Made by a program: the position numbers and the translations under genes
Assembly: GCA_049603795.1 (NCBI GenBank)
Contig: JBMYSY010000015.1
Coordinates: 47,531 to 111,530 of the forward strand
Origin: Magnetovibrionaceae bacterium
GTDB lineage: Bacteria; Pseudomonadota; Alphaproteobacteria; Rhodospirillales; JBMYSY01
Direction of reading: 5' to 3'
DNA: 64,000 nucleotides
Shown here: piece after piece, positions 1 to 61,484 of the stretch
Numbering within the stretch: position 1 is the stretch's first letter
Layout: every line of letters begins with the position of its first letter
Notes under the pieces: generated by a model
Told to the model about the DNA's origin: nothing
What the model saw: the letters and a program-made list of their open reading frames with translations, nothing else
Databases searched by the model: none

Positions 1-3000
1 TTGCCGCCAGCGCAGCCCGTGCCGCCGTGCAAGAGGCCTTCCTGACCACCGAGGCCCAATACAACATTGCTCTAAGCCAGTCCGCCTTGGCCGAAAGCCT
101 GGAAGCCCGTGTTTTGGCGACCAACGACGCGGACGAGGCGGAATCCCTGGCGGAGGAAGCCCAGGCCGCACGGGAGGCTGCGGAACTGGCCTCGACCCGG
201 GCACGCATTGCTTCCGAGAACGCGGGCTCCGCGGCCAAGGGGGTCGAGGGCCGGGAAGTCGCCGACTTGGCGGATGAAGCCTCGCAACTGGCCGAGGAAG
301 CCGCCGAATTCGCCGGGACGGCGGAACGGTCCGCCAACAATGCCAGCGACCGGGCGGACGATCTTCGTGCGGCTGCCGATTTGCTGGATGTTCAAAATGC
401 GGCTGACGAAGCCGCTGCCGCCGCCAAGGCAGCCGCCGAGGCCGCAGCCCAACAGGCCGCGGATGACGCCCGGTCCAGTGCCGAGGCTGTCGTGCAGGCG
501 AAGGCTGATGCCGATGCGGCTGCGGAGGTTCAAGTTCAGGGCTTTGCCGACGAGGCGGCAGCCCAGGCCCAGATCGCCCAGGATCAGGCAACATTGGCAA
601 CGACGGCGGCGAACGAAGCCGATGCCGCTGCGGCCCGGACAGCGGCTGATGCGGCGCAGGCGGCAGCCGACAAGGCGCTCGCCGCCTCCAATGCCGCTGG
701 CGAGGCAGCTGCGGGGGCCGGTGCGAACGCCCAGGCGCAGGCTGCTGCGGCGGCTGCCTCGGCGGCCCAGGCTCAGGTGCAATCGGGCTCGGCTTCTGCT
801 GCTGCGACGGCCGCGGAAAATGCGGATGCGGCTGCGGATGCTTGGCGAGATGACTCGGCAACGACCGATCGGGCGGCCGCCGTGGCTGCAGCCTTGTCGG
901 CGGATTCGGTTGCCGATGATGCTTCCATTGTGGCCGTGGCTTCGGCGAACACGGCTTCGAGCGCTCTTACGGCCACTGTGCAGCCACTGGTCGATGAGGC
1001 TGCGGCGCTGGCGACCCAGGCGGCCCGTGCCACGGCGCTGACAGATGCCCAGGCCCGATACAATACGGCTCTCAACGACGGGTCCAGTCTGGCTGTCCGC
1101 AACGCCTGGGAAGCGGCACGCGACGCGGCGCAAACAGCCTTGAACGATGCCAATGCGGCAGCCACAAAGGCCAGCGCGGCTGCTCGCGCGGCGGAAAACA
1201 CAGCGGATCTCGCCCAGCAGGATGCCGATGCTGCTGCCGCTTCGGCGCTGTCCGCGCGTGCTGTTGCGGCGGACGCGGCAGAGAAAGCCGGGTTTGCCAT
1301 CGCTTTTGAAGAGCAGGCGCGTGGTGCCGCGGAACGGCAAGCAGACGCGGCCCTGGATGATGCCTTCAGCGATGCCGAATCGGCGGCCAGTGACGCGGCG
1401 CAAGCGGTCGAAGATGCCCTGACGGCTTTGAACAATGCCGAGACGGCGGCCAATCAGGCTGCTGCGGTCATCGATGCCGGCGGCAATATCGACCATACCG
1501 ATAATGCGGGCGACATGGCCGACATTCTGGCCGCTGTCCAGGCGGCCACAGCGGCCGTGACGGCGGCCCAGACCGCGCTGACGGCGGCCAATGCCGCGAG
1601 GACGGCAGCGGATACGGCGCTGACCCTGGATGATCGCGCCAGCCTGGTCATCAACCGGGCTTCTGCAACGGCGACCTCCAACGAGGTCACGACCCTGCAG
1701 ACCGGTGCATCGGACGCCAAGGCGGCGGCAGACGCGATCCTCCAGGCGGCGAATTCCTACGAGGACCTGGTTCGCGTCCTCGCAGGCGATCCTGCCTATG
1801 GCGGCGAAACCCGGACAGACGCCGAAAATTCAGCTGCCGCAGACGATGCAGCAGCCCGAACGGCAGCAGACGGCGCGGTTGATCAGGATACCATCGATGC
1901 CGCACGGTCCGCCTCCCAGTCGGCTGCGGCTTCCGCGCGGGATGCCGATGTGACGGCAGCCGAAGCGGCGCTGACAGCGACACAGACGGCTCAGGCAGCG
2001 GCTGAAGCCTCCCGCGATGCGGCGCAGACATCCTTGAGTGCGGCCACCACGGCGCACAACAACGCCATCGCCGACGCGACGGCAGCGACCCAGGCCTACG
2101 ACGATGCCGTGGCCGCAGACGTCAACAATGTGGATCGGGAAGCCGTGGCCAAGGCCTTGGCGGCCCGGGATCGGGCTATCCAGGCGCGCGACAATGCGGC
2201 GGATGCCAAAGCGGATGCCCAGGCAGCCTATGACGAGGCCTTGGTGCAGTTCACCATTGCGGACACCGCGCTGAGCGACGCAACCCAGGCCGTGTCTGAC
2301 GCGCAGGACGCGCAAACCAATGGCGAGCCGACGGCGGGTTTCCGGGCGGTTGCCGAGGGTGCACAAGACAAGGCCGAACAGGCCCAGGCTTCGGCTACTG
2401 TTCAACAAACGGCTGCTGCGGCCGCAGCCACCACGGCCTCATCCGAGGAAACAAAAGCAGACACGGCCCGATCCGACGCCGAGACCGCAGAGGCCGAGAC
2501 CCTGGCTTCCGTCGACGCGGCAGCCGCCCGCGGGACGGCGGATACGCAACTGGGCATTGTTCAGGCCAGGTTGGCGACCGCTAACACGGCGCGGGATACG
2601 GCGGCGACGGCAGCGCAGGATGCTCGCACGGCTGCCAATCAGGACCCGCCGGATGTGACGGCAGCGAATGCGGCCTTGACCTCGGCAAACACAGCCGTCG
2701 ACAGCGCCACGGGTGCGGTGACCGATGCCCAGGCTGCGTTGACTGCTGCCAGGACAGCTGCCGAAGCGGCCGATGCGGCAGCCGCACGTTCTGATGCGGG
2801 GCCGGTGGCCACGGCGCAGGCCACGGCTGCCAATGCCGCAGTGACCCAGGCGGAAAGCCTGGTGACGGAAGTACTGGCGGCCCGTGCAGCCGCCGTCGCT
2901 TCCCAAACGAACGCCCAGGCCCAGGTCGATCTGGCCGAGGCCGATGCGGCGGACCGCGCGGCAGCTATCGAAGCGGCCAACGGTGCAGCGATCTCGGACG

Positions 3001-3540
3001 CCAAGGCGGCAGCCGACGAGGCCGCAGACGCGGCGGAGGCTGCAGCCACAGCGGCAACCGCTGCCTACAATTCGGCTTTGGCGCACTTTAATGATGCGAC
3101 AGCCGATCTGGCGGCCTTGAATGCGACCCCGGTCCCCTCGGACGCCGACCAGGCGACGGCGCGGACCACGGCGATTGCCAATGCCACCGCCGCCGTCGCG
3201 GAAGCCGAGGCCGCGAAGGACGAGGCGAATGCTGCTGCCGGCCGGGCCAATACGGCTGCCGGCCTGGCGCGCGCCGCATCCGATTCGGCAAATGCGATTT
3301 CGGGCACGGCCGGTAGCGACGTCACGGATGCCCAGGGCTTCGCCACGACCGCCGCCGGTCAGCGCGATACCGCCGAGGATGAAGAAGCCCTGGCCGAGGC
3401 GCAGGAAAACCGGGCCGAACAGGCCGCCGGTCGGGCCGATGCCCAGCGGGAAGATTACGAGCAATTGCTGGCCCAGGCAGCCCAGGAAGCCGCCGAGGCA
3501 GCGGCCCAAGCCGCCCGTGACGCCCAGGCGGATGCCAAGG
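1..3540 (+). other. Ala-rich low-complexity, probably alpha-helical stalk region of the giant protein (at least ~1,170 aa)
   Basis: The translation is dominated by Ala with D/E/Q/T/S/N/R and has very few Pro, Gly runs or aromatics. Examples: AAAAAKAAAEAAAQQAADDARSSAEAVVQAKADADAAAE, and TAAQTALTAANAARTAADTALT at ~1561-1626, where Thr/Ala fall in a 4-3 spacing. It ends abruptly at DAKDDTHTINEDEADL (~3541), where the first cadherin-like unit starts. Confidence 0.7.
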
Positions 3541-6500
3541 ACGATACCCATACCATCAATGAGGACGAGGCAGACCTCGCCGATCTCACCATCTCTGTCC
3601 TGGCCAATGATAAGCGGGCAGACGGGGGCAATCTGGTCGGCGGCGAAGTGGTCTCCGTTGGTGAGACCGCCAACGGCGGAACGGTAACAATCGCCGATAA
3701 CGACACCGATGTGATCTATCGCCCGGCGGCCAACTTCTCGGGCACGGATACCTTCACCTATACAGTCCGGGTTCAGACCGGGACAGATGGTGGGGGCCAA
3801 CCGGTCTATTCCTTCTCGACCGCCAAAGTGACCGTCACGGTTACGGAGGTAAACGACGCGCCGACCCTGAAAGCCGACGTCGGGACCGTCTCGGATGAGG
3901 TTTCGACCATTACCATCAATGTTCTGGCGAACGACAGCGATCCGGAAAACCAGACCCTTTCGATCACGGGCGTCGGCAGCGGCGACGACCCCGCGACCAT
4001 CGATCCGTCGAATGGCGTTGTGGCGATCACCGCCAATGGGCGTGTGACCTATACCCCCAATGCGGGCGATTTCGATTATCTGGCCAAAGGCGAGACGGCG
4101 ACGGATACCTTCACCTACACCGCATCTGACGGTAGCGGTGGAGTGGCCACGCAGACGGTTGTGGTGACGGTTACCGGCACCAACGACGGACCGGTCGCGA
4201 GCAGCCTGACCGTTTCCGGCAATGAAGAAACGGATATTCAAGGAACGGTCTCGGCCACCGATGCCGACACGGGGGCTTCCATCACCTATGCGGTCACCTC
4301 GACAGGTGGACCCTCTAATGGTTCCGTGGTGATGAATTCGGATGGCAGCTTCACCTACACGCCCGACGATGACTTCGCCGGGACCGATACCTTCGTTTTC
4401 CGTGCAACCGACAATGAGGGCGCGACCTCCGACGAAACGGTCACCGTGACGGTCAATGACGTGAACGACGACCCGATCGCGACGGACGACACGGCGAGCG
4501 TAAATGCCGGTGCTTCCGTTACCTTCGACGTCTCCACCAATGATAGCGACCCCGATCCGGACACGACGCTATCGGTCTATTCCACGGGGAATGCGGCGTC
4601 CGGGTCGATATCGGTGAACGGCGGCGAGATCACCTATACGGCGGATGGCAGCGGCCTTGATGCCCTGGCGGCGGGCCAGAACCTTACGGATACCTTTGAG
4701 TATACCATCGAAGATGGCGACGGCGGCTTTGATACCGCTACGGCAACGGTCACCATCAACGGTGTCAATGACGCACCTGTTGCCGGCGATACACAGACGT
4801 CGGCGGATGAAGGCGGCAGTGTCACCGTCTCGGTTCTCGACAATGTAACCGATGTCGATACCGGCGACACGAAACGTCTGCAGTTGATCGGGCAGGGGAC
4901 CTACGGCGACGTCGCCATCGCGGCAAACGGTACGGATGTCACCTATACCCCCGATGACGACTTGACCAATTCTCTCGCTGTCGATCAGGTCCAGATCGAT
5001 ACCTTTACCTATACGGTGGTCGATGGTGCCGGTGCGACCGATGTGGGAACGGTGACGGTCACCATTCAGGGTACCAACGACGCGCCCATTGTCTCGGCGA
5101 GCCTCTCCGATCAGACGGCTGAAGAAAACAACGCCTTTTCGTTCACCGTGCCATCCGATGCTTTCACGGATGTGGATAGCGGGGACAGCCTGACTTACGC
5201 TGCGACGCTTGAAGACGGCTCGGCGCTGCCCGGTTGGCTCAGCTTCAACCCCTCAACGCGGGTGTTTTCGGGCACCCCGGGCAATTCCGATCTGGCCACT
5301 CTATCGGTCCGCGTGACGGCGACGGATGGCCAAAGTGTCAGCGTTTCCGATGTCTTCTCTCTGTCGGTTACGGAAACCGACGACCAGACCATTGTCGGTG
5401 ACGATACGGACAACGTGATCACACCGGGGGCGGGCAACGACAGCGTCGATGGTCGGGGCGGAACGGACCGGGTGATCTTCTCCGGGCTTGCGGCGCAATA
5501 TACCATTACCGATAACGACGACGGGACCTACACCGTCTCGGGCCCGGACGGCGTCAACGAACTGCAAAACGTCGAGGAACTGCAGTTCGACGATCAAACC
5601 ATCACGGTCGGTCGCGGCAGTACGGGGGCTGACCAGTTCCAGGGCGGCAGCGGCAGCGACAACTACAACGGCGGCGCTGGTGACGATGTTCTGGATGGCG
5701 GAGCCGGTGACGACATCCTTAAAGGCGGCGCGGGTAACGACAGCGTCCTGGGCGGAGAAGGTAACGACCAGCTGATCGCCGGTACCGGCAACGGCGACGA
5801 TCTCTACGACGGGGGGACGGGGTCCGACTGGATCACCTTCCCCAGCACCTCGTTGGGTGTCAGCGTCGATCTGGCCAACGGGACCGCCAGCGGTTCCGAA
5901 ATCGACAACGACACCATCACCAACGTCGAAAACGTCCTCGGTGGATCGGGCAACGATACGATCCTGGGCGACGGACAGGCCAACTCGCTCCTCGGCGGCG
6001 ACGGCAATGATTTTCTATCTGGTGCCGGCGGGGTTGATGCTCTGTTGGGCGGCGATGGTGATGACACCCTGAAGGGCGGCCTGGGGACGGATTTTCTGAC
6101 CGGCGGGGCCGGAACGGATCAATACCAGTACACCCAAGGCGACGGTCGGGACACGATCCTGCAAACCGGCGACGACAGCGGGGCTGACTGGGTCAATTTC
6201 CTGGGTGGTACCTATGCCGACGTGGATTGGGGCCGGTTGGGCGACGATCTGCTGATCGCGGTCAAGGCTAGTACGTCCGACGGAATTTCGACGAATAACC
6301 GCATCACGGTTTCCGGTCACTACACCACCACGGTCAGCGGCATCGCCTACTTCGAAGCCGATACGAACGAAAACAGCTTCTATTCGCAAGACGGTTCCAC
6401 GACGCGGATTTTCACGCCCGATACGCTCTCGGGTGCCGATCAGGGCATCTATACCGAGCTTCTGCAGGGGACCAACTTCGCCGACACCATCACCGGTGGC

Positions 6501-9500
6501 GGCGGCTACCGCGATTACCTCTTCGGCTATGGCGGCAACGATGTCCTTGAAGGGTCCGATGTCACGCGGGATGAACTGCGTGGCGGCAGCGGAAATGACG
6601 TCCTGCGCGGTCGAAGCGGCGATGACCGCCTGCGCGGCGATGCCGGCAACGATACGCTGGACGGCGGTGCCGGTAACGACATGGTTCGCTATGACAGGGC
6701 GAGCGAAGGGGTCACGGTCGACCTGACGGTCCAGGGTGCCGGAAACGCGCAATCCATCAGTTCCGGCCAAGGCAACGATACGCTGATCGATATCGAAAGC
6801 ATCCGGGGGTCTGACTTCGCCGACACCCTGACCGGCAGCAGTGCGGCCAACACCATCGACGGTCGGGCCGGCAACGATGTGATCAACGGAGGTGCGGGCA
6901 ACGACGTTCTGATCGGCGGCAGCGGCACGGACCGGGCCATCTTCTCCGGCTCGATTGGGGCTTATTCAATTACCCATAGCGCCTCCAATCTCACGGTCAT
7001 TGGGCCGGACGGGACGGACGTCCTCCAAGACTTCGAACAGCTGACCTTCGATGAAGGCACCTATGACCTGCTGATCGGCTCTGCCGGCAACGACACCCTG
7101 GCTGCCGGGACCAATCCGGCGATCTTCTTTGACCTTGGTGGATCGGACAGTTTTACCGGCGGCTCAGGTGCCGACTGGATCGTCTATAGCACCTCGGCAA
7201 ATCTGGCCATTGACTTGGGCCAGGAACAGTCGGTCGCCGGATCGGATGTGGATGATCTTTCCGGCATTGAAAACGCCGTCGGGGGATCGGGCGACGATGT
7301 CTTCCGGGATGGCCTCGGCAACAACATCATGTCGGGTGGCGATGGTGCCGATACCTTCTTCGCTTTCACCGGCAATGACACGATCCTGGGTGGTAGTGGA
7401 ATTGATACGGTCGTCTTGTCGCCGACCGAAATCCTGACCAATGCCACACGCAGCGGCAACGATCTGGTTCTGACCTATCTCGATTACGCGGCGACGAGCT
7501 ATACGATAACGGTGCCCGGACAATATGGCCCCGGCGGCAACCTTGAAATCTGGCAAGACGTCGGAACCGATGGCTCCACGGATTACAACATTCTGGGCAG
7601 CCTGACAGGTGGATCGGGCGATGATCTTTTGGTCGGCACGGGAGGCGCAGATTCGATCACCGGCGGTGACGGCGCAGACATCATCTATGGTGGTGCAGGA
7701 GACGACAGCATTCTGGGCGGCGACGGTCTGGACTTCATTGATGGCGGGACCGGGACCAACAACCTGGATGGCGGATCCGGTATCGATATCCTGTCCTACC
7801 AAAACGCCTCGTCGGCCGTTTCGGTCAACCTGATCAGTGGAACGGCGGCCTCTTCGGACGGCAGCATTTCGGATACGGTCTCTAACTTCGAGGCCGTGTT
7901 TGCCTCGGACCATGCGGATACCCTCCTCGGCAGTACAGGCTCCGATATTCTCTATGGCGGAGCGGGCGACGACACCATCGCAGGCGGCGGCGGGGCGGAT
8001 TCCCTGGATGGCGGCGACGGCGACGATGTGCTGTTGTTCAGTGGCTCGGAGAACATTCACGGCGATGACGGCCAGGATACGGTAGAGGTCCTCTCAGGGG
8101 CCGATCTGGACCTGACCTCTGCAATCCTGTCGGAAATCGAGGCCATCCAACTGGCGGATGCCGCCTCCCAGACGGTTACACTGGACGCGGACAGCGTCTG
8201 GTATTCGGTCGATGAAAACAATGAGCTGATCATCAAGGGCGACGATTCCCATACGGTTCGGAATGTCGGGGACTCGTTCGGTCTGGCCGGTCTGGAAACC
8301 ATCGAAGGCCAGGACTATTCGGTCTATACGGGCGAATACAACGGCGAAACGGTCACGCTGAAGATCGATGATGATATTTCCCTCGAAGGTTTCTCGGCCG
8401 CGCCGGTGATTACCGATCCGGGAAGCAGCCTCAACCTGGACGGGGCGGACGATTACATTTCGCTTGGCGATCCCACAGCCACGGACCTGGAGCCGGCCGG
8501 AGACCCCTTTAGTGCCTCTGCCTGGTTCTACTTCGATCCGACCCAGACAGGGGACCGGGCCATTCTCTCTCTCGGCAATGATGAGAGCGCCACCGAGGGC
8601 TTTAGTGTTTTCCTGAGTGGTTCCGGAAGCAGCACGGAACTGGTTGTCCGGGTGAATACGGGCGGCGGTGTTCAGAGCCGGATGGCTGCCAGCCACATTG
8701 AGATGCCTAGCGAAGAAGGCTGGTATCATGTGGCCATGGTCATCGATGGCTCAAGCGCCAGCGGCGAAGACCAGTTGCTCGGTTACCTGAATGGGTCCAA
8801 CTCAGGCTGGGTGCCGGGATATGGGTCAATCTCCGAAGACCGCCTGACGATTACCAGCTCCGGGATCGAGGGCAACGGACGACAGTTGCTGATCGGTGCC
8901 AGGGACGCCGGAAATGATGGGATCGAGGATCATTTCACCGGTGCCATTGCGGATGTTCAGTTCTGGGACAAGACCCTCAGCGCCGAAGAGGTCATCGATG
9001 TCTTACACGGCAACGTGGACAATGCCGACGCCGATCTGCTGGCCCGCTACGACTTTGCCGACAGCGCCGATTTCGGTGCCGACATCGCGACCGCCAACGG
9101 GACCTTCAGCGGGGTGACAACCGGTCAACCGACCCAGGGGACCTTTGCCGAGCCGAACATCTTTGTGGAGGGACAAGGTGCCATCCGGCCGCTTACCGGC
9201 CTGGCGTTTTCCGATCCCGACAGCACCACCTTCGACGGTGGTCAGTTGGATGTGACGATGACCGGACGATCCGGTTCCGACTCCTTCATTCTCTACAACG
9301 GTAACGGCATCACTTTCGGTGCCAACGACGCCGTGCTCTACAACAATGTGACGTTCGGTACCCTGTCGAACTTCTTCCAGGGCCGGGTCACCCTTGACCT
9401 GAATGCCAATGCCGATATCGCTGCGGTCCGCGCCTTCGCCGGAAACATTGGCTTCAACAATTCGACCGAAACGCCGACAGCCGGTTTCCGGACCATTGGG

Positions 9501-12500
9501 ATCACCTTCGATGACGGTGATGGCGGTGTTCTGCAGGACTTCGAAAAGTCCATGTACGTCAGCCCGACAAACACGGCTCCGGAAATCCAGACCGGCATCG
9601 CGTCGAGCGAAGAAGAAGTCCTGATCGGTACCACCACCACCGAGGACCAGTCGCTGCCGGAAGCCGTTCAACTGGCCGATGGCAATGTCTTTGTGGTCTG
9701 GCGGAACGAACGGGATGGTTCGGGTGTCAACGATGTTGGCGGGATTTCGGGCAGCATCATCGATCCGGAAGGATCGACCGTCGTTTCCGAATTCCTGGTC
9801 AGCACCAGCCAGAATTTCTTGCAGTGGCGTCCGCAGGTAACCGAGTTGGCAAACGGCGACATTGCCGTCGTCTGGGTCAGCCGGCATTCAGGCGAAGACC
9901 TGATGGCGCGCATCTATCAGCCCAATGGCCAGCCGCGGACCAATGAACTGACGCTTTCCGACAATACGGTGGGTGATTCTGCCGGCGGAACGGGTATCCC
10001 ACAGATCCTGTCGCTGGATGGCGATGGTTTTGCTGCTGTCTGGATGACGGGCGGGGATATCAAATATCAGAAGTTCTCGGACCTCGGGGTTCCGGATGGC
10101 ACACCATCGACGGCCAATACGATCACCACGGGGACGCAGAACCGTCCCCATGCCGTGGCCCTCGATGGCGGAGGCTTCGTGGCCAGTTGGCTGGATGAGA
10201 ACCTCGGCATTCAGGTGCGCCGCTTCAATAACGACCTATCACCGGCGGATACGGTGGAGATCTCGGTCGATGCCGTGCCCAGCGGAAGCGAGGGCTATTC
10301 AGCGGTCGCGCCCGTCGCCGGCGGTGGATTTGTCGTGGCCTGGGTCGATGGCACCTCGGTCTATGCCCGCCTGTACAATGACGCTTCAGCGCCCCTCGGG
10401 TCCGAATTTGTGGTCGGAATCGCGACGGCGATCAGCGGACCGATTGATCTGGTAGCCGATCAGGACGGGAATTTCGTCGTCCACTGGCAGGACGTGACAG
10501 GCGGTGCCGACGCCAAGGAATCCATGTTGGCCCGCTTTACCAGCGATGGTGCCTTGCTGGGTGATGCCATCAGCATTGCGGAACATGCCGATGGCGATCA
10601 GGCCAATGCCAAGATCACGCCCCTGGATGACGGGCGGTTGTTCGTTGTCAGTGATACCGCGAGCACTGACGGCGGCTATGAATCGGTCGACGTTGTCTAT
10701 CGGATTTTCGATCCGGGTTTCTCAGGCACCTATGTCGAGGATGGCGCTCCCCTGCAGGTCGACCCTGGCTTCCTGGTAACGGATGTGGATTCGGGCGATT
10801 TCGAAGGCGGCTCCCTGACGGTTCAGGTCACCGAAGGCGACGACGGTGGCGATGTCCTGACCATTGCGGACGAGGGTAGCGGAACCGGGCAGATTGGCTA
10901 CCTGAGTTCGGCCGGGACGGTTTTCTATGAAGGAGACCTGATCGGGACGGTGACGGGCGGCGTGAACGGTCAGGCCCTGGCCATCTCCCTCAACGATGCG
11001 GCGACACCGGAGGCGGTCAGCGCTCTCGGTCGCGCAATTCTGTTCTCGAACGAGGCCTATGAGACGGGGAGCGACGACCGGACCATAACCTTTACCGTCA
11101 ACGACGGTCATGGCGGCCCGACGCCGAGCGCGACGATCTCCAAGGCGGTCCAGATTTCGCCCTCAAACGATGCGGCCACCCTGTTCGAGCCGCCGATTAC
11201 GCATAGCCTATCCCTTGATGGGGCCTCCTATATCGATCTCGGCGACCCCTATAACGACTCGTCGCGTGAACCCCTGTCGCCGGACAACGATCCCTACACG
11301 GTCGAGGCCTGGTTCTACTATCACCCGGACCACAGCGGGACGCGCTCCATCGTTTCCTGGGGCAGCCAGACCTATGATCAGGAAGGCTTCAACATCTTCC
11401 TGACGGATGCGGATTCTGATGGGGTCGATGAACTGGTCGTTCGCGCCCACACCTCGACCACCACGAGCCAGAGCCAGATCGGTGCCAGCCATATCGAAAT
11501 GCCCCAGGAGGAGGGCTGGTACCACGTCGCCATGGTGATCGACAGCGATAACGGCAATGCGGACGACACCATTATCGGCTACTTGGACGGGGACAGCAGC
11601 GGCTGGACCGCAGGCCATGACAGTGTCACCGACGATCAGATTGACCTGACATCGTCCGGCATTGATCCGAAAACGGGGGTGAGCGTTGCCATCGGTGCTT
11701 CGACCGACAGTGACGGCAATCCTGGCCAGTATTTCACCGGCGAGATCGGCGACGTGCGCTTCTGGCGCGAGGCGCGGACAAGGGACGAAATCGAAGACGG
11801 CATTCAAGACGGCGTGGCGAGCGATGCGGCCAACCTGGAAGCGCGATATCTGTTCAGCGCTCCGGAAGGACCGGAAGTGGATGCAACCGGGAATGTGCCG
11901 GATGGCCTTTCCGTCGGATCGCCCGGCGTTTTTGTTGGGCTGGGCATTCCCCTGTTCATCGAAGGTGGCTCTCCGGCGCGGGTCGGCAGCGAGGTCAAGG
12001 TTGATGACCCGGACAGCAGCGATTTTGCCGGTGGTACGCTCTCGGTTTCCATTACGGCCGGGGTAACAGGCGATACCCTGACCATCATCGATGGCGGCAC
12101 GGACGGCGTCCAGATTTCGGGCAGCAATGTTCTCTATCAGACCGCTTCGGTCGGCACGTTGGTCAGCACGGGAACGGATTCAACACCGCTTGAAATCACA
12201 TTGAACGCGAATGCCACGCCTTTGGTGGCCGAGGCGATTTTCGGTGCCATCGGCTTCGCGGCTGGTTCTGACGCGCCGGGTTCGAGCCGGGACCTGACTT
12301 TCTCGCTGACCGACAGCGCCGGCGGTGCGGCGGCGCAGTTGAACCAGACGGTCTATATCCAGGAACAGAACGACGCGCCGGTCATTGCGGGCAGCGATGG
12401 ATCGGCCTCGGATGAGGCCCGGGTCGGGACCAACTTCGCGGGCGATCAGACCCATGTCTCCGCGGCTGAACTGCCGGACGGCAACGTCTTCATGGTCTGG

Positions 12501-45500: not shown

Positions 45501-48500
45501 CTCGGTACCCAGGATGAAGACTGGCACCACCTGGCCCTGGTCATCGACCAAAGTGGCTCCAGCGGCGAATTCCGGGCCTACCTGGACGGCGCGGCGACGG
45601 GCTGGACCCAGGGTGATTACAACAGCAGCTTCACCAAGGGCACGCTGACCGATTCAGCCAGCCTGGTGTTCGGCGCGAATTCGGGTGGTCTGGAAGGCTT
45701 CGACGGTCTGATCGATGACGTACGAGTCTGGAATTTGGCCCGCACGGAAGCCGACATCGCCAAGGACATGGACCGCAATCTGGAAGGCAACGAGACCGGT
45801 CTGACCGGCTATTGGACCTTCGACGAAGGTGTCGGCACCCTTGTCTATGATCTTGCAGGAACCCACAACGGGACTGTCACCAATGGCGAATTCCTGAGCC
45901 AGCGCAGTCAGGTCCTTGTGGAACCGGGCGATCCGATCAGTGTCCGTCTCACCGCAGCCGATGTGGATGGTGACGAGCTGACCTACAGCATCACCTCTGT
46001 CACCGGCGGTGCCGCCACCGTGAACGGTGACAGCGGCGTCATGACCTTTACCGCACCGGAGACAACGGGCAATTACACGGTCAACTATCAGGTGACGGAT
46101 CCGGATGGGCGCTCCAACACGGGTTCGGTGTCGTTCAGCGTCGCCCTGCCGGAAGTGGCGATCCAGGGGGCGGAGGCCGATACCACCGTTCTACAACTGG
46201 ATGGCCAGAACGATTTCCTCGATGTCCAGGGCGATCTCGGCACACTGGAAGACTTCACCTTCGAGACCTGGATCAACCTCCGCGAATTGCCGCCGACCTC
46301 GAATGACCTCTATTCGCTGCTCTCCCAGAACGGCTGGGCTCTGGGCGATCTGCACGTGAACATTCTGAGCGACGGCACGATCGAATTTGCCCGCAACGGC
46401 GATAACCCATATGCGACGACGAGCGATCTGTTCACCGGATCGGGCCAGGGCCTGTTGAACCAGTGGGCCCATGTGGCGATCGTGGCCGATGGATCGGCCA
46501 ATACCTTTGATATCTACGTGAACGGCGATCATCTGGAGACCGTCAACGATACCATCGGCGGTACCTTCGACCTGTCAGATGCTTCTTTGGGCGCCTGGCA
46601 GGCCGACAGCGGACTCGTGAGCCGCCATCTGCCAGCCTCGCTCGATAACACGAGGCTCTGGTCCGATGTGCGCAGCGCCGACGAAATCAAAGCCAGTTTC
46701 CAGCTTTCCGATCCGGTTTCCAAAGACAACCTGACAATGAACCTGACCTTTGATCAGGAATCGGGCGGGGCCTACGTGGACAGTTCCGGCAACAGCCACC
46801 ACGGTGCCTTTACCGAGCGGGCCGGCGCTGGCCAGGCTGGCGCGCCGAACGGCTATGCGACCGCACTGAACGGCTCGACGGACTACATCGTTACGGCAGC
46901 GACGGGAACCTATACGGATTTCACGGTCGAATCCTGGGTCCGCGTCGATACGATGCCGGGCAGCGAGGATGTTGATGTGCTGTTCGGAACCGACAATTTC
47001 GTCGGTGGCGACTTCACGGTTGATCTGTATCACAAGTCCGGCGACGGCAAGACCTACCTTCGCTATGCACCGGGTGTCGGGGCTGGAAGTGCGGTCGCGG
47101 AAGTGGAAATCGACCCGACGACGTTTGAAGGTCTGTTCAACCATGTTGCCGTTAGCTACGACGCGAACAGCGATACGATGAAGTTTTATGTCAACGGCAG
47201 CCTCGTGCATACGGACAGCCCCTACGGTATCGCTGCCGTGCAGGTCGATGGTTTCCGAGTGGGCACCTATAATGACGGAACGAGTAATGCCCGGTTCCTC
47301 GATGGTGCTTTTAGTGATGTTCGCTTCTGGTCGGATGTTCGCAGCGAGAGCGACATTCAAAACTCGATGTATACCGATACGCCGACCAATGCCGACAATC
47401 TGGTCTTCAATTACAAGCTGGATGGTCAGGCGGACGGTGGCGTTGCTGACAGTTCCGGCAATTCGAACAACGGCACGATCCAGGGCCAGGCCGGGACGAT
47501 TGTGGGCGGTGTCCAGGAGCTTTCGCCGCCGCCGGCAGCGCTGACTTTCGACGGTACGGATGACCGCATCGAAGTCACGGACCTGCAGGCTGCTCAGAAT
47601 GCCTTCACCTTCGCCTTCTGGGGGAATGTGCAGTCGTCCTATGCGGGTTCGGCCCACGACTACGCCATTCAGTGGGGCGACAATGGCGACAACAGCGCCC
47701 TGCGGTTCGAATATGGGCCGGAAGGTACGATTTTCGCTTCCATCGGCAACGGCAGCACCCTTGTCGAACACTCGGGCGTTGGTGTGGATGTGGGATGGGG
47801 CTACGACGAATGGCACCACTGGGCGGTCAGCTACGACGGCAGTCGGGTTACCATCTACATGGATGGTCAGGAGGTGAACTCCTTCGCGGCCACGCTCGAT
47901 ATTACGGGGGCCGACGGCAAGCTGCGCGTGGGCGACGGTTACACGACCGGAGCTGAATTCGATGGCCAGATGGCGGACTTCCAGTACTGGTCCACGGCGT
48001 TGGGTTCCAGCGCGATCAGTGCCGTCAAGAATGGCAACATCACCGGGAACGAGGACGGCCTGGGGCTTTGGTGGCCGATGCAGGAAGGCTCCGGAACCGA
48101 TCTCTTCGATGCTTCGGGTAATGGCTTCGATGCAACGGTGACGGGGGCAACATGGGCGGCGGATGCCAACCCGGATGTCCACGACGAACAGGCCGTTGTC
48201 GAGGCTTTCCAAGGAGCCCCAGTTACCGGTCAGGTGGCAGCGACGGATCTTTCCGGCGACACGATCACCTTCTCGGCTTCCGGTGCCGACGGAGGGGCGG
48301 AGTTCGGCACGCTGACGGTCGGCTCGACCGGTATCTACACCTACACGCCGGATGACGGCTTCTTCGGTACCGATTCCTTTACCGTGAAGGTGACCGCCGG
48401 GGGCGAAGAGGAGTACCAGCGGATCACGGTCAACGTGGCCCCTGCCGGGGATCGCGAAATCGATAGCATATCCGATTTGGACGGCATCAACGGCTTCGAG

Positions 48501-50444: not shown

Positions 50445-50473
50445 ACGGTTAGACGTTTTAGAGTTCAGGCACC

Positions 50474-51616
50474 ATGGCGAAAGCAAGTACCACAGCGACC
50501 GCGAAAGCGCGCAAATCCCCCACCAAAAAGCCGCGGAAACGCTCGGCAAAGGCTGAACCCGCGCCTGCGCCATCTGGCGAATTTCAGATTTATGCCTCGC
50601 CACACTTTGCGGGCTGGCTGCACGAACAGAACGTTAGCCTCGGCTTCACGACCTATCAGGCCGGTAAGTTATTTCTGATCGGACTGAAAGAAACCGGTCA
50701 GATCTCGGTGGAGGAACGTTCCGTTGACCGCTGCATGGGCATCGCGGCCCATGACAACGCGCTCTATGTTTCGAGCGACTATCAGATTTGGCGGTTCGAG
50801 AATGCGCTCCTTCCGGGCCAGACGGTGGATGGCTATGATCGTGTCTACCTGCCCAAGACCAGCCATGTCACCGGCGCGATTGACGTACACGAGATGGACC
50901 TGGACGGCGAAGGCTATCTCGTTTTCGTCAATACCAAGTTCTCTTGCATCTCGACTTTGAATGACCGCTATAGCTTCGAGCCCATCTGGTGGCCGCCCTT
51001 TATCTCAAAGCTGGCTCCGGAAGACCGTTGTCATATGAACGGCATGGCGCTGGTTGATGGCCAACCCTCCTATGTTACGGCCGTCGCTGCCACGGATACG
51101 CCGGAAGGGTGGCGGGAAAGACGCACTGATGGCGGCGTGGTGATCGATGCCTTCGAAAACGAGACGGTCCTGGGCGGGCTCTCCATGCCGCACAGCCCCC
51201 GCTGGCACCGCAATGGGCTCTGGCTGTTGGAATCGGGTACCGGTTGGTTTGGCCGCGCTGACCTGGACGCGGGCGAGTTCGAAGAAATCACTTTCTGTCC
51301 GGGCTATGCGCGCGGCATGGCAATGTATCGGAACTATGCCGTTGTCTGCGTCTCGCAGCCCAGGGACGAGGCGACCTTTGGCGGCCTTCCCCTCGATGAC
51401 AATCTTGAGCGGGCAAAACTGAAAGCGGCCTGCGGCATTCTGGTGATCGACATCGAGCGGGGCGAGATCGTCCACTGGCTTCGGCTAGACGGCCCCATCC
51501 AGGAACTCTTCGATATTGCACTGATGCCTGGCGCAACGCGCCCGCGAGCCGTGGGCTTCAAGGGCGACGAGATCAAGTATGCCGTCTCCCTGCCGCCGAC
51601 GGTGGATGGCGGCTGA
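50474..51616 (+). CDS. TIGR03032 / DUF4915-family protein of unknown function, with a Lys/Arg-rich N-terminal tail
   Basis: A 380-aa ORF begins 29 nt after the giant gene's stop. Motifs I recognise from this family: F.GWL.E..VSLGFTTYQAGKLFLIG, YQIWRFENAL, FVNT.FSC, PPFISKLAPEDRCHMNGMA, LSMPHSPRW..G.LWLL.SGTG, FCPGY.RG. The N-terminus MAKASTTATAKARKSPTKKPRKRSAKAEP is strongly basic. Confidence 0.8.
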   Translation: MAKASTTATAKARKSPTKKPRKRSAKAEPAPAPSGEFQIYASPHFAGWLHEQNVSLGFTTYQAGKLFLIGLKETGQISVEERSVDRCMGIAAHDNALYVSSDYQIWRFENALLPGQTVDGYDRVYLPKTSHVTGAIDVHEMDLDGEGYLVFVNTKFSCISTLNDRYSFEPIWWPPFISKLAPEDRCHMNGMALVDGQPSYVTAVAATDTPEGWRERRTDGGVVIDAFENETVLGGLSMPHSPRWHRNGLWLLESGTGWFGRADLDAGEFEEITFCPGYARGMAMYRNYAVVCVSQPRDEATFGGLPLDDNLERAKLKAACGILVIDIERGEIVHWLRLDGPIQELFDIALMPGATRPRAVGFKGDEIKYAVSLPPTVDGG

Positions 51617-51756
51617 AGAAAAAGGTCTCTTCTAAGAGACGATTATGGTCAATCTGATAGTCGTTGCTAGGCGAAATTAAACCTAGACAGTTTTCCTTTC
51701 ATTTCCCAAGTCTAGGAAAATCCCTAAAAATTAAGTAGGCGGAACATACTCCTGAC
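51617..51756 (+). promoter_or_regulatory. AT-rich intergenic region upstream of the chemoreceptor gene: probable promoter, a 7-bp inverted repeat, and a weak hairpin after the preceding gene
   Basis: The local composition is clearly more AT-rich than the flanking DNA. An inverted repeat CCTAGAC (51682-51688) / GTCTAGG (51710-51716) is separated by 21 nt. A short hairpin GTCTCT-tcta-AGAGAC lies at 51625-51640, just after the TIGR03032 stop, with no T-tract. No confident -35/-10 assignment was possible. Confidence 0.4.
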
Positions 51757-54345
51757 ATGCTGCAGAATCTCAAAACCAAACCAAAGATCACGCTCGCGAC
51801 CCTAACACCTCTACTTTTGTTCCTCGTTGTGGGCGGCATTGTCCTCAGCAATTACCTGTCTCAGGAGGAGGACAAGCGGTGGGTTGCCCATACAAATCAC
51901 GCGATCCAGGCTTCGGATGCAATCATTGCCGCTGCTGTGGATATGGAAACCGGCATGAGGGGCTATCTTCTTTCCGGTAAGGAAGAATTCCTTGACCCCT
52001 ATAAGTCCGGTAATCAGCACTTCTTCGATTTGATTTCCGAACTAAAGAAGAAAGTAAGCGATAACCCGAGACAGGTTGGCCGTCTTCAGGAAGCCGAAGA
52101 TGTGATCTCTGAATGGAAGGCAAATGTCACGGAACCGACGATCGAGCTGCGCCGGCAGATTGGTGATGCGCCGACCATGAACGATATGAGCCAGCTTGTC
52201 TCTGAGGCACGGGGCAAAACTTTTTTCGATAAGTTCCGCAGCCAGATCGCGCTTTTTATCGAGCGGGAAGAAAAGCTCCTGGGTGAGCGGGAGGCGCGGT
52301 TCTCTTCTGACGTTTCGGCTGGAATTGTGAACGCGGATACCATTCGCGAAAACAGCATGTGGGTGACCCACACCTATAACGTCATTGCCGAGGCCGGACG
52401 CATCCTGGGGGCGGCGATTGACATGGAGACGGGCATGCGCGGCTTCCTGCTTGCCGGGCGGGAAGAATTTTTGGAACCCTTCAATAGAGGGTCTGGTTTG
52501 TTTGATCGACTGGTGGCAGATCTTGCCGTCACCGTCTCCGACAATCCGGCCCAGGTCCAACTCCTGGGCGAGATTTCCGATACCATCAACGAGTGGCGTT
52601 CGACCGTCGTGAAGGAAATGATCGATCTTCGACGGGTGATCGGCGACGCAAAAACCATGGATGACATGGCCGATCTTGTCGGCGAAGCGCGTGGCAAGAC
52701 TTACTTCGACCGTTTCCGGGGGCTGATGGCCGAATTTAAGGGTGAGGAAGTCGACCTGTTGGATGCGCGTTCAGAAGCCAGCGCTGCGGGTGCGCAAACG
52801 GGCCTTGTTCTGATTTTCGTGTCCATCGTCATTGCCGTTGTTCTGGGGATCATTCTTGCTTTGTTTGTGGGCCGGGGAATTGCCGGTCCGATTGTGGCCA
52901 TCACGGAGTCCATGGCAGCGCTGGCCGACGGCAACTTGGATGTCGACGTCCCCGGGCGCGGTCGAAAGGATGAAATCGGCTCGATGTCTGATGCCGTGCA
53001 GGTGTTCAAGGAGAACGCCCAGGAGGTCAAACGGCTGGAGCAGGACCAGCAACAACGTCTGAGCGAAGAACAGGAGAAGGCTGAGGCCCTGGCGGCATTT
53101 GCAGGAGAGATCGCCGAAGTGTCCAGGTTGGCGTCCCAAGGTGATCTATCAGGGCGGCTCGAAGAAGCCGGGCGGGAAGGTGCCCTGTTGGATGTGGCAC
53201 AAAGTCTCAATCACATGCTTGCGATGGTTGAGGACTGGTTGGAACAAGCCAGTCGGATTCAAGGCGCGCTCGCCGAGGGGAACCTCAATGTCCGCATGTC
53301 CGGTACCTACGAGGGTATCTTCGAGGAACTGAAAAACGACTCCAACAGCACGGCCGAGCGTTTGAAGGTAACCGTTGGAGCCATTATGTCGGCTACCGAG
53401 CAAATGGAACTGGCTACCGGCGAAATCGCCTCCGGCACCAACGATCTGGCAGAGCGAACCGAGCGCCAAGCCTCGGAACTGGAAGAAACGGCAGCCGCTA
53501 TGGAGCAGTTGACGGGGACCGTTCGTCAGAATGCGGATGCTGCCCAGCAAGCCAGCACGCTTTCCAGCACAGCCCGAATGGAAGCGGAAAAAGGAGGGAT
53601 TATCGTCTCCGACGCCGTTTCCGCAATGGGCCGGATTTCAGCGTCTTCCGAAAAGATCTCTGAGATCGTTGATATGATCGAAGAAATTTCTTTCCAAACC
53701 AATCTTCTGGCATTGAATGCAGCCGTTGAGGCCGCCCGGGCGGGCGAGGCTGGAAAAGGTTTTGCCGTTGTCGCCGCAGAGGTTCGGAGCCTCGCCCAGC
53801 GGTCCAGCGAAGCGTCGAAAGAGATCAGCGGTCTGATTTCAGAGAGCTCCAGTCAGGTCAAAGACGGCGTGGAGCTTGTGAACAAGACGGGCCTCACCTT
53901 GGACGAGATCGTTGTCGCCGTGAAACGCGTCGCCGATATCATCGAAGAAATCACTGCAGCCAGCAAGGAGCAGTCCACGGGCATTGACGAGGTGAACACG
54001 GCGGTTGCGGGTATGGATGAGATGACCCAACAGAATGCTTCCCTTGTGGAGGAAACCACGGCTGCCGCACAGTCCCTGGACCAACAGGCAAAGGAATTGG
54101 CCCGCCAGGTTGCTTTCTTCCGCACCGACGAACCCGACCTACGAGACGCCGGGACGATCCGGCCCTCGCCCTCAAATTCTGCCGTTTCGAAGAAAATTCG
54201 ACCGGTCCGGGCACAAGAGATGGCTAAATCCATTTCGGTTCCAACAAAAGGGGGCTCCAAGCCCAGGGAAGACAAGCGCACTGCTGCCCCATCTGCTGCT
54301 GAAGAGGGATGGGATGGTGATGACTCCGAATGGGAAGAGTTCTGA
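51757..54345 (+). CDS. Methyl-accepting chemotaxis protein with two tandem CHASE3 sensor domains, HAMP, an MCP signalling domain and a C-terminal xWxxF pentapeptide
   Basis: 862 aa. TM1 is [23 protein letters not shown]3-like copies lie at aa 41-182 and 201-342 (W..HT, then DMETGMRG(Y/F)LL.G.EEFL.P). TM2 is at aa ~349-372. The conserved signalling hairpin is [41 protein letters not shown]. The protein ends in EWEEF. Confidence 0.9.
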
Positions 54346-54348
54346 GAA

Positions 54349-54855
54349 ATGGTGACTGACCACATGGCCCAGGCCGATTTCCTGACAGAGCCGCAAGATG
54401 GCCGGGAATCGAGCAGTACTCAGTTTGTGACCTTCACCTTAGGATCGGAAGGTTACGGCGTAGATATCCACACGGTTCGTGAAATTCGGGTCTGGTCCGA
54501 AACTACAGATCTTCCAAATGCACCTCAGGATGTGAAGGGTGTCATCAACCTTCGTGGCGTCATCGTACCCGTATTTGATCTGCGGTTTCGATTTGGCAAA
54601 GGTGCCACGACACCGTCCAAACGGCATGTCGTCGTCATCATTGCCTTGACCGACCACTTAATCGGGATTCTCGTGGATGCTGTTTCGGACATCGTCGAGG
54701 TTCAGCCAAGTGAACTCCGCCCTGTTCCCGAGTTGGAGTTTGGCAGGGAGAGTGATTTTTTGAAGGGGCTCGTCGCCATAGGTGATCAGATGATTGCGAT
54801 CCTTGATCCGCAGACATTGATGCGGGGCCATGTGGTTGCCCAGTTGACCGGATAG
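54349..54855 (+). CDS. cheW: Chemotaxis coupling protein CheW
   Basis: 168 aa. The start lies 3 nt after the MCP stop, preceded by GGGAAGAG. The CheW-like core reads QFVTFTLGSEGYGVDIHTVREIRVWSETTDLPNAPQDVKGVINLRGVIVPVFDLRFRFG...LVDAVSDIV. An alternative start at 54364 is possible. Confidence 0.88.
   Translation: MVTDHMAQADFLTEPQDGRESSSTQFVTFTLGSEGYGVDIHTVREIRVWSETTDLPNAPQDVKGVINLRGVIVPVFDLRFRFGKGATTPSKRHVVVIIALTDHLIGILVDAVSDIVEVQPSELRPVPELEFGRESDFLKGLVAIGDQMIAILDPQTLMRGHVVAQLTG

Positions 54856-57838: not shown

Positions 57839-61484
<3,646 letters not shown>

Follow-up and report, generated by a model that had tools for sequence, protein, structure and literature searches.

A 64,000-nucleotide stretch of contig JBMYSY010000015.1 from a Magnetovibrionaceae bacterium (the window) carries on its forward strand two closely linked genes: a giant open reading frame (ORF) of 16,805 amino acids (positions 27–50444, with the TGA stop codon at 50442–50444) and, 29 nucleotides further on, a gene of the DUF4915/TIGR03032 family (50474–51616 including the stop codon, with its ATG at 50474), which encodes 380 amino acids. 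Comparison of this pair with the DUF4915 loci of other bacteria makes it very probable that DUF4915 proteins are functionally coupled to proteins that bear an FG-GAP beta-propeller followed by RTX repeats, the module with which the giant protein ends. On balance, the DUF4915 protein is probably a cytoplasmic enzyme that modifies such FG-GAP/RTX substrates, judging from its conservation and from the enzymes to which its relatives are fused.

Association of DUF4915 genes with the FG-GAP–RTX module

Gene neighbourhoods were compared at 80 genome loci of DUF4915 relatives, in which ORFs were called and the DUF4915 gene, as located by tblastn, was forced into the gene map; several long neighbouring 'ORFs' with isoelectric points (pI) above 11 in GC-rich loci were treated as spurious. 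Among the 80 directly adjacent same-strand neighbours, the Pfam domain FG-GAP was found in 27, FG-GAP_3 in 21 and HemolysinCabind in 18; TPR families reached at most nine each, and Glyco_transf_41 (GT41) eight. Counted over 78 loci, FG-GAP/RTX proteins occupy 34 of the 145 positions next to DUF4915, 7 of the 119 at a distance of two genes, 4 of the 106 at three, and 3 of the 401 at four or more. For distance one against four or more, this corresponds to an odds ratio of 41 (Fisher p = 4e-18, over positions that are not phylogenetically independent). The partner precedes DUF4915 in 14 loci and follows it in 18; 45 of the 48 cluster members share the DUF4915 strand. The adjacency extends over at least six phyla, and is seen in Cyanobacteria, Planctomycetota, Alpha-, Beta- and Gammaproteobacteria, Verrucomicrobiota, Sumerlaeota and Binatia.

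In the reciprocal direction, metagenome contigs were scanned with an alignment of the module, and DUF4915 was sought in their flanks, which were often truncated. It lies near 10 of the 23 closest module homologues (E <= 1e-36), compared with 2 of the 57 weaker FG-GAP matches. The initial annotation had proposed a test for enrichment of the family next to giant RTX/LamG genes. Enrichment is borne out, by the neighbour counts (34 of 145 versus 3 of 401) and by the reciprocal scan alike, but the description of the partner is not: what is linked to DUF4915 is the FG-GAP propeller–RTX module, not giant size or LamG content. Partner proteins range from about 500 to 27,080 amino acids; in Anabaena azotica, for example, DUF4915 is followed by two FG-GAP(/RTX) proteins of 1,562 and 1,324 amino acids. 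The module of the window (the C-terminal 700 amino acids of the giant protein) aligns with DUF4915 neighbours at 33–37% identity over 500–720 amino acids, and the aligned neighbours include those of Planctomycetota, Nitrosomonas, Sulfuritalea and cyanobacteria.

In four close (Rhodospirillales-type) relatives, the DUF4915 gene lies directly 3' of a giant gene, across gaps of 5–28 nucleotides, and all four giants end in six to seven FG-GAP repeats plus RTX. The giant products and the gaps behind their genes measure 27,080 amino acids and 28 nucleotides in locus L081, 6,229 and 5 in L083, 10,451 and 5 in L086, and 10,268 and 6 in L087. The genes that come next in these relatives, which include DsbA and AMP-ligase, are not those found 3' of DUF4915 in the window, so that the giant–DUF4915 pair has remained intact through changes in its surroundings. 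The length of 27,080 amino acids is that annotated for the giant in L081 (positions 1–9972; JGI metagenome 3300032132, contig Ga0315336_1000056), and such a product, if real, would be among the largest bacterial ORFs.

It is hardly credible that this arrangement arose by chance or is a mere relic of history, DUF4915 and the giant gene being functionally unconnected. Some loci do fit such an explanation: among the 40 that are well flanked (at least 4 kb on both sides), an FG-GAP/RTX gene lies within two genes of DUF4915 in 42%, and 18 (~45%) have near DUF4915 no gene of any theme described here; some members are solo, P0036 being a clear case, and the window itself lacks other genes of the pathway proposed below. 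Against it stand the enrichment at the adjacent position, the occurrence of the adjacency in either orientation and across no fewer than six phyla, the retention of the pair while the other flank changed, and the positive reciprocal scan.

Two loci with neighbours of other kinds were also seen. In L080 (7070–9679; a Bacteroidales metagenome-assembled genome), the upstream neighbour has YadA-head repeats and represents a different kind of adhesin, and in L032 (7406–9856; Kordiimonadales) no surface protein is in view, the upstream gene being that of DabA, a subunit of an inorganic-carbon transporter.

The junction between the giant and DUF4915 genes

The same-strand spacing of 29 nucleotides between the two genes, given in the initial annotation, is confirmed at 50445–50473. 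That annotation placed the downstream feature at 50445–51616; its end is correct, but 50445 is the first intergenic base. The DUF4915 gene starts at 50474, which is the sole possible start because an in-frame stop codon lies at 50459.

In a scan of 49500–52500, the gap proved free of terminator-like sites, and the whole scanned region free of sigma-70-like promoters. RNA folding of the gap gives a hairpin at about 50440–50469, which spans the stop codon of the giant gene and a Shine–Dalgarno-like AGG upstream of the DUF4915 start. It consists of a 7-bp outer and a 5-bp inner stem, at -18 kcal/mol in its 76-nucleotide context, a value that is not significant relative to shuffled sequences (z = -1.6). 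As it has no U tract, this weak hairpin is not an intrinsic terminator, and the earlier statement that no terminator-like hairpin separates the genes holds. The hairpin could couple or lower the translation of DUF4915. The GC content falls only past the DUF4915 gene, to 0.43 compared with about 0.6 in the flanks, in the AT-rich spacer of 140 nucleotides before the next gene (51617–51756), where the terminator scan detected a hairpin (51625–51640) on the minus strand. This spacer is likely to hold both the end of the giant–DUF4915 transcription unit and the promoter region of the MCP–CheW genes that follow. The two genes thus lie as in an operon, on the same strand and 29 nucleotides apart with no terminator or promoter match between them, and are most likely transcribed together.

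An antisense ORF of 1,342 amino acids (46575–50603, minus strand) reaches from the start of DUF4915 across the gap into the 3' end of the giant gene. It is most likely a compositional artefact, because in 14 GC-rich loci similar antisense ORFs overrode the true DUF4915 gene in crude gene calling.

The giant protein and its C-terminal module

Pfam searches covered the first and the last 3,000 amino acids of the giant protein, and detected RTX, Big_9, cadherin-like, He_PIG and FG-GAP domains and at least nine LamG_3 domains. HemolysinCabind matches occur in 13 stretches of the first 3,000 amino acids and in two stretches about 130 amino acids from the C-terminus. The whole protein has a pI of 4.05, a net charge of -1776 and a single cysteine in 16,805 amino acids. 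It thus has the sequence properties of RTX substrates of type I secretion systems (T1SS), namely RTX repeats near the C-terminus, acidity and a paucity of cysteine. Such substrates are expected to have cognate ATP-binding cassette (ABC), membrane fusion protein (MFP) and TolC-like genes at the same locus; as the initial annotation had observed, there are none downstream of the giant gene, in 51.6–64 kb of the window, which covers only the downstream side of that gene. We presume that the giant protein is a T1SS substrate or an adhesin.

The last ~700 amino acids comprise seven FG-GAP blades, an RTX block and a C-terminal domain of about 120 amino acids. The seven-blade propeller (48519–49901, plus strand) was recognised by Pfam FG-GAP matches and by seven Ca-binding motifs of the form GD[IVF]NGDG, one per blade. 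The RTX nonapeptide block and the C-terminal domain follow at 49908–50441 on the same strand, with the RTX part at about 49908–50081 (HemolysinCabind, residues 834–868 of the last 1,000 amino acids). This arrangement of blades, RTX block and C-terminal domain is kept in the module alignment, in which seven repeats are visible. The ~120-amino-acid domain is presumably the region of the T1SS secretion signal.

At its other end, the giant protein starts with MQEAFLTTEAQYNIAL, and is rich in Ala and Glu and coiled-coil-like. Its first 1,000 amino acids (window positions 27–3026) gave no match to an NCBIfam family, and no LapA-type N-terminal retention module was recognised there.

The DUF4915 protein

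The DUF4915 protein scores 440.2 bits with TIGR03032 (cut-off 251.5; model positions 2–333 of 335) and 435.3 bits with PF16261 (cut-off 35; model positions 2–315 of 316). No other Pfam family, be it HlyC, GT41 or a sulfotransferase, matches it at E <= 10. The family is large, with at least 7,743 members, since that number of the 8,000 scored candidates (clusters at 90% identity) was significant. NCBIfam gives TIGR03032 the type 'hypoth_equivalog', and text searches of a literature library found no mention of DUF4915, TIGR03032 or PF16261, in agreement with the earlier description of the family as uncharacterised.

Sequence conservation is high. In 26 sequences with 51–71% identity to the window protein, 82 columns are invariant, and the window protein keeps all 82, which confirms the conservation of family motifs claimed before. 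The invariant motifs include EDRCH.NG, SMPHSPR, CPG..RG and W.RFEN, and His, Cys, Arg, Asp, Glu and Ser are frequent among the invariant residues. Across phyla the identity is 49–56%, with about 55% between alphaproteobacteria and cyanobacteria.

The protein is made up of a basic N-terminal tail (residues 1–33; 50474–50572) and a DUF4915/TIGR03032 core (residues 34–380 plus the stop codon; 50573–51616), the latter recognised by hidden Markov models, alignment, an AlphaFold2 model and Foldseek. The tail has a pI of 11.8, contains 10 Lys and Arg residues compared with a single Asp or Glu, and is disordered in the model, with a predicted local distance difference test score (pLDDT) of <50; the core is acidic (pI 4.8). 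No signal peptide, transmembrane or hydrophobic segment was found in the protein, which is predicted to be cytoplasmic. The histone-like basic N-terminus of the initial annotation is therefore present, but it is a variable feature and the linkage does without it. Similar tails occur in P0002, P0005, P0009, P0012, P0025, P0068, P0077 and L001, and in three of the four close relatives looked up; P0037 and the cyanobacterial members lack one. A connection between the tail and giant partners was considered and rejected: P0037, beside a giant of 10,268 amino acids, has an acidic N-terminus, and the L001 protein has the tail, adjoins T1SS genes and has no giant in view.

The AlphaFold2 model, built on the 26-sequence alignment, is all-beta (pLDDT 85.4, predicted TM-score 0.85), so that the protein is confidently modelled as a six-bladed-like beta-propeller, the fold at which the earlier annotation had guessed. 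Foldseek against the PDB returned only generic six-bladed propellers (LRP6 YWTD, Kelch and the designed SAKe), with TM-scores of ~0.45–0.5 and ~12% identity, and a profile of the same alignment found no PDB sequence relative at E <= 10. EDRCH.NG, SMPHSPR and CPG..RG lie at the starts of strands 188–194, 239–245 and 278–285. Judged by their spacing, these would be the innermost strands of three consecutive blades, and the motifs may then form a ring of His, Cys and Arg at the axial entrance of the propeller, which is the usual position of the active site in propeller enzymes.

Fusions to glycosylation enzymes

DUF4915 is fused to TPR and GT41 in L069 (DUF4915-TPR-GT41) and to GNAT, GT2, TPR and GT41 in L059 (in that order). 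In Nostoc calcicola (L072, 10019–21075), two fusions, DUF4915-GNAT-TPR-GT41 and DUF4915-GNAT-GT2-TPR, flank one FG-GAP/RTX gene of 1,155 amino acids. A search with one fusion protein as query matched at least 120 clusters (E from 0 to 1e-274), mostly cyanobacterial. Among the 120 matches listed, all but one contain PF16261 and TPR, most also contain PF13844, many have GNAT or GT2, and a few carry PF00685, PF05830, PF01531 or PF00534, which we take to be Sulfotransfer_1, NodZ, GT11 and GT1, respectively. Some of the listed fusions are named 'protein O-GlcNAc transferase' by their sources. In Synechocystis salina the fusion gene lies directly upstream of genes for an FG-GAP protein and an RTX/cadherin protein. 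Where the domains are encoded separately, TPR-GT41 is found in 14 loci, commonly just upstream of DUF4915, and the gene order of the Burkholderiales type is FG-GAP/RTX, GT4-like, TPR-GT41, DUF4915. DUF4915 is the constant element of these arrangements; the GT41, GT2, GT4, GNAT and sulfation genes vary. The fusions specifically point to a glycosylation-type modification pathway.

Apparent N-terminal fusions in L019, L022, L058 and L064 (ORFs of 657–877 amino acids) contain no extra Pfam domain and are probably artefacts of choosing the first start codon. In Planktothrix agardhii (L093, 14794–22557), an insertion sequence transposase lies between a DUF4915-TPR-GT41 fusion and a 2,587-amino-acid protein with no recorded Pfam match, which may be a divergent client.

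The same enzymes could instead build or decorate a polysaccharide or lipopolysaccharide together with DUF4915, the FG-GAP/RTX protein then binding, or being anchored by, the glycan and not serving as a substrate. Such a surface-glycan function would account for the GT2, GT4, GNAT, fucosyltransferase-type and sulfotransferase domains and the adenosine 5'-phosphosulfate (APS) kinase, all typical of polysaccharide decoration, for the many lectin-like LamG domains of the giant protein, and for a cluster with a Wzt-like ABC ATPase in some loci. We regard it as improbable all the same: the characterised TPR-GT41 enzymes (OGT, SPY and HMW1C/NGT) act on proteins, the neighbour with the tightest and commonest linkage to DUF4915 is the gene of the protein, and genes for glycan export or a polymerase are absent from many loci, the window among them.

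Sulfation genes recur in part of the family. Six of the 80 loci (L003, L009, L018, L021, L047 and L070, which are cyanobacterial and betaproteobacterial) have an APS kinase gene no more than three genes away from DUF4915, directly adjoining it in L021, and two fusion proteins, P0226 and P0234, have an added Sulfotransfer_1 domain. These findings suggest a pathway that involves sulfation in some lineages. DUF4915 could itself be a new beta-propeller sulfotransferase acting on the FG-GAP/RTX protein or its glycan, with 3'-phosphoadenosine 5'-phosphosulfate (PAPS) supplied by way of the neighbouring APS kinase. There are precedents for both parts of this idea, a beta-propeller sulfotransferase (the aryl-sulfate sulfotransferase) and sulfation of a T1SS-type substrate (RaxST-RaxX); moreover, no recognised sulfotransferase is present among the genes scanned in L021, L036, L047 and L009, and many of the invariant residues are Arg, His and Ser. 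The canonical Sulfotransfer_1 domains of P0226 and P0234 would, however, make a second sulfotransferase redundant, DUF4915 has no Pfam sulfotransferase match and no PDB relative (both at E <= 10), and in most loci, as in the window, the neighbourhood contains no APS kinase. We therefore give this possibility very little weight.

T1SS genes adjoin DUF4915 at two loci: directly 3' of it lie ABC and HlyD genes in L001, and genes for a TolC-like OEP, an ABC protein and HlyD in L040. A third locus, L014 (OEP plus genes of 448 and 1,068 amino acids), was not counted, because its 1,068-amino-acid protein starts like a pump of the resistance–nodulation–division (AcrB) type. The position of DUF4915 directly upstream of T1SS genes in L001 and L040 would suit a non-catalytic chaperone or secretion adaptor, whose propeller binds the unfolded, Ca-free FG-GAP/RTX module and keeps it competent for export or delivers it to the T1SS. 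The adjacency evidence fits this role equally well, the best structural matches are protein-binding propellers (Kelch and LRP6 YWTD), and neither Pfam nor the PDB profile gave a catalytic family at E <= 10. On the other side, 82 invariant residues are unusually many for a client-specific chaperone, those residues are polar and of catalytic type (His, Cys, Arg and Asp), and the recurrent fusions to GNAT, GT2, GT41 and sulfotransferase domains are better explained by an enzymatic assembly line. With its pI of 4.8, the core is also ill suited to bind the very acidic client by simple electrostatic attraction; a basic propeller was considered and rejected, the protein being basic only in its 33-residue tail. 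A chaperone is thus unlikely, although it is the likeliest of the alternatives considered here.

A candidate modification system for FG-GAP/RTX proteins

We propose that the DUF4915 protein is a dedicated partner of secreted proteins with the FG-GAP propeller–RTX module and that, as an enzyme in a glycosylation-type protein-modification pathway, it acts on them in the cytoplasm ahead of their export by a T1SS. The giant protein would be its putative client in the window. In other lineages, the TPR-GT41, GT2, GT4, GNAT and sulfation enzymes that are fused to DUF4915 or encoded beside it would join the pathway, and DUF4915 could, as a speculation, supply its core or first step. The argument rests on the combination of a conserved partnership with frequent fusion to enzymes that glycosylate proteins, from which it follows that DUF4915 probably modifies such proteins before export. 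An enzyme is favoured over a chaperone because DUF4915 is far more conserved than its presumed client (~55% versus ~35% identity), because its invariant residues are of the catalytic or metal-binding type, and because it has repeatedly been fused into multi-enzyme glycosylation proteins. In the window and its relatives the client has DUF4915 as a neighbour but none of those enzymes, so that the activity of DUF4915 must make sense when they are not encoded nearby. The initial annotation had suggested that the gene encodes an accessory factor of the giant protein, and the enriched synteny in both directions and the four giants of close relatives support this; from the sequence comparisons we infer the activity itself, a catalytic rather than a binding role, with the FG-GAP/RTX protein itself as the substrate.

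Several observations weigh against this proposal, beginning with the well-flanked loci that have no theme gene, the solo members and the phylogenetic non-independence of the adjacency counts, all mentioned above. No GT41, APS kinase or T1SS gene lies beside the pair in 51.6–64 kb of the window, so that any pathway partners would be encoded elsewhere or be unneeded. There is no PDB sequence relative from which catalysis could be assigned, and the structural matches are generic propellers, many of which (Kelch, YWTD) are binding domains. A glycosylated chain would, in addition, have to be able to pass through a T1SS channel.

A bolder version of the proposal, which we offer tentatively and consider somewhat doubtful, is that DUF4915 might be the catalytic core of an unrecognised, widespread cytoplasmic modification system for T1SS-exported FG-GAP/RTX surface proteins. 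It would then represent a new class of beta-propeller enzyme, which would place a modification on the FG-GAP propeller–RTX module or process one there; in cyanobacteria and betaproteobacteria, the fused or adjacent TPR-GT41, GT2, GT4, GNAT and sulfation enzymes would elaborate this modification.

The results provide a large, strongly conserved orphan family with a testable hypothesis, founded on its client module and its glycosyltransferase fusions: that giant RTX adhesins and S-layer-like proteins receive a chemical modification in the bacterial cell before a T1SS exports them. Our searches found no earlier report of the conserved client module of DUF4915 or of the functional hint given by its fusions. 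If the hypothesis is true, DUF4915 would be a new enzyme class for the modification of T1SS substrates, and could explain the glycosylation reported for the cyanobacterial RTX surface proteins SwmA and oscillin (review, PMC3034196). In the literature on glycosylated T1SS adhesins and on the SwmA/SwmB motility genes, we found no link to the DUF4915 family. Short natural pairs would make convenient model systems, the proteins being otherwise too large to study; examples are a 349-amino-acid DUF4915 protein with a partner of 685 amino acids in Nitrosomonas (L025) and one of 360 amino acids with a partner of 533 in Rhodanobacteraceae (L055).

Genes downstream of the pair

The genes 3' of DUF4915 in the window encode a CHASE3 methyl-accepting chemotaxis protein (MCP), CheW, a histidine kinase, a histidine phosphatase, two isocitrate dehydrogenases, an HD-domain protein and a LOG-like protein. 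The first of these, at 51757–54855, is a chemoreceptor with duplicated CHASE3 (two matched stretches), HAMP and MCP domains, and is followed 3 nucleotides later by CheW; this MCP–CheW unit appears to be unrelated to the giant–DUF4915 pair. At 57839–61484, the minus strand carries adjacent genes for two distinct NADP-isocitrate dehydrogenases, one monomeric (738 amino acids, TIGR00178) and one of the dimeric, eukaryote-type kind (406 amino acids, PRK08299).

Comparison with known systems

We know of few modifications of T1SS substrates before export, acylation of the HlyC type being one example. HlyC and CyaC are acyltransferases that activate RTX toxins and are encoded beside the toxin genes, and HlyC acylates lysines of pore-forming toxins. 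Like DUF4915, they are small cytoplasmic accessory genes tightly linked to a T1SS RTX substrate, with a presumed action on this substrate while it is unfolded and still inside the cell. They differ in having an acyltransferase fold in place of the predicted propeller (DUF4915 has no HlyC match in Pfam at E <= 10), and the module linked to DUF4915 is an FG-GAP propeller of adhesins or S-layer-like proteins.

The GT41 enzyme HMW1C/NGT glycosylates the HMW1 adhesin in the cytoplasm before its secretion. Here too a cytoplasmic enzyme is encoded beside a very large secreted adhesin, and in many DUF4915 relatives a GT41 domain is fused or adjacent. HMW1, however, is exported by two-partner secretion and not by a T1SS, and the window protein has no GT41 domain but a separate propeller. 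Likewise, many cyanobacterial DUF4915 proteins have the TPR-GT41 architecture of O-GlcNAc transferase at their C-termini, whereas the window protein is a stand-alone propeller; we know of no O-GlcNAc transferase in which a function has been assigned to an N-terminal DUF4915 domain.

In the RaxST-RaxX-RaxAB system, a peptide exported by a T1SS-type ABC/MFP pair is sulfated on tyrosine, with PAPS provided by RaxPQ. The cytoplasmic modification of a T1SS-type substrate and the need for an APS kinase recall the APS kinase genes that recur near DUF4915, but RaxST has a canonical sulfotransferase fold and a small peptide as its substrate, and DUF4915 has no sulfotransferase signature. LapG/LapD likewise exemplify accessory genes that are located near giant T1SS adhesins and specific to them. 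LapG is a periplasmic protease acting on the N-terminal retention module of LapA-like adhesins, whereas DUF4915 is predicted to be cytoplasmic and tracks an FG-GAP–RTX module that is usually C-terminal. By analogy with HlyC–HlyA, HMW1C–HMW1 and RaxST–RaxX, the giant–DUF4915 pair would be a known type of arrangement, an accessory enzyme encoded beside its secreted substrate, that is served here by an uncharacterised family of beta-propellers.

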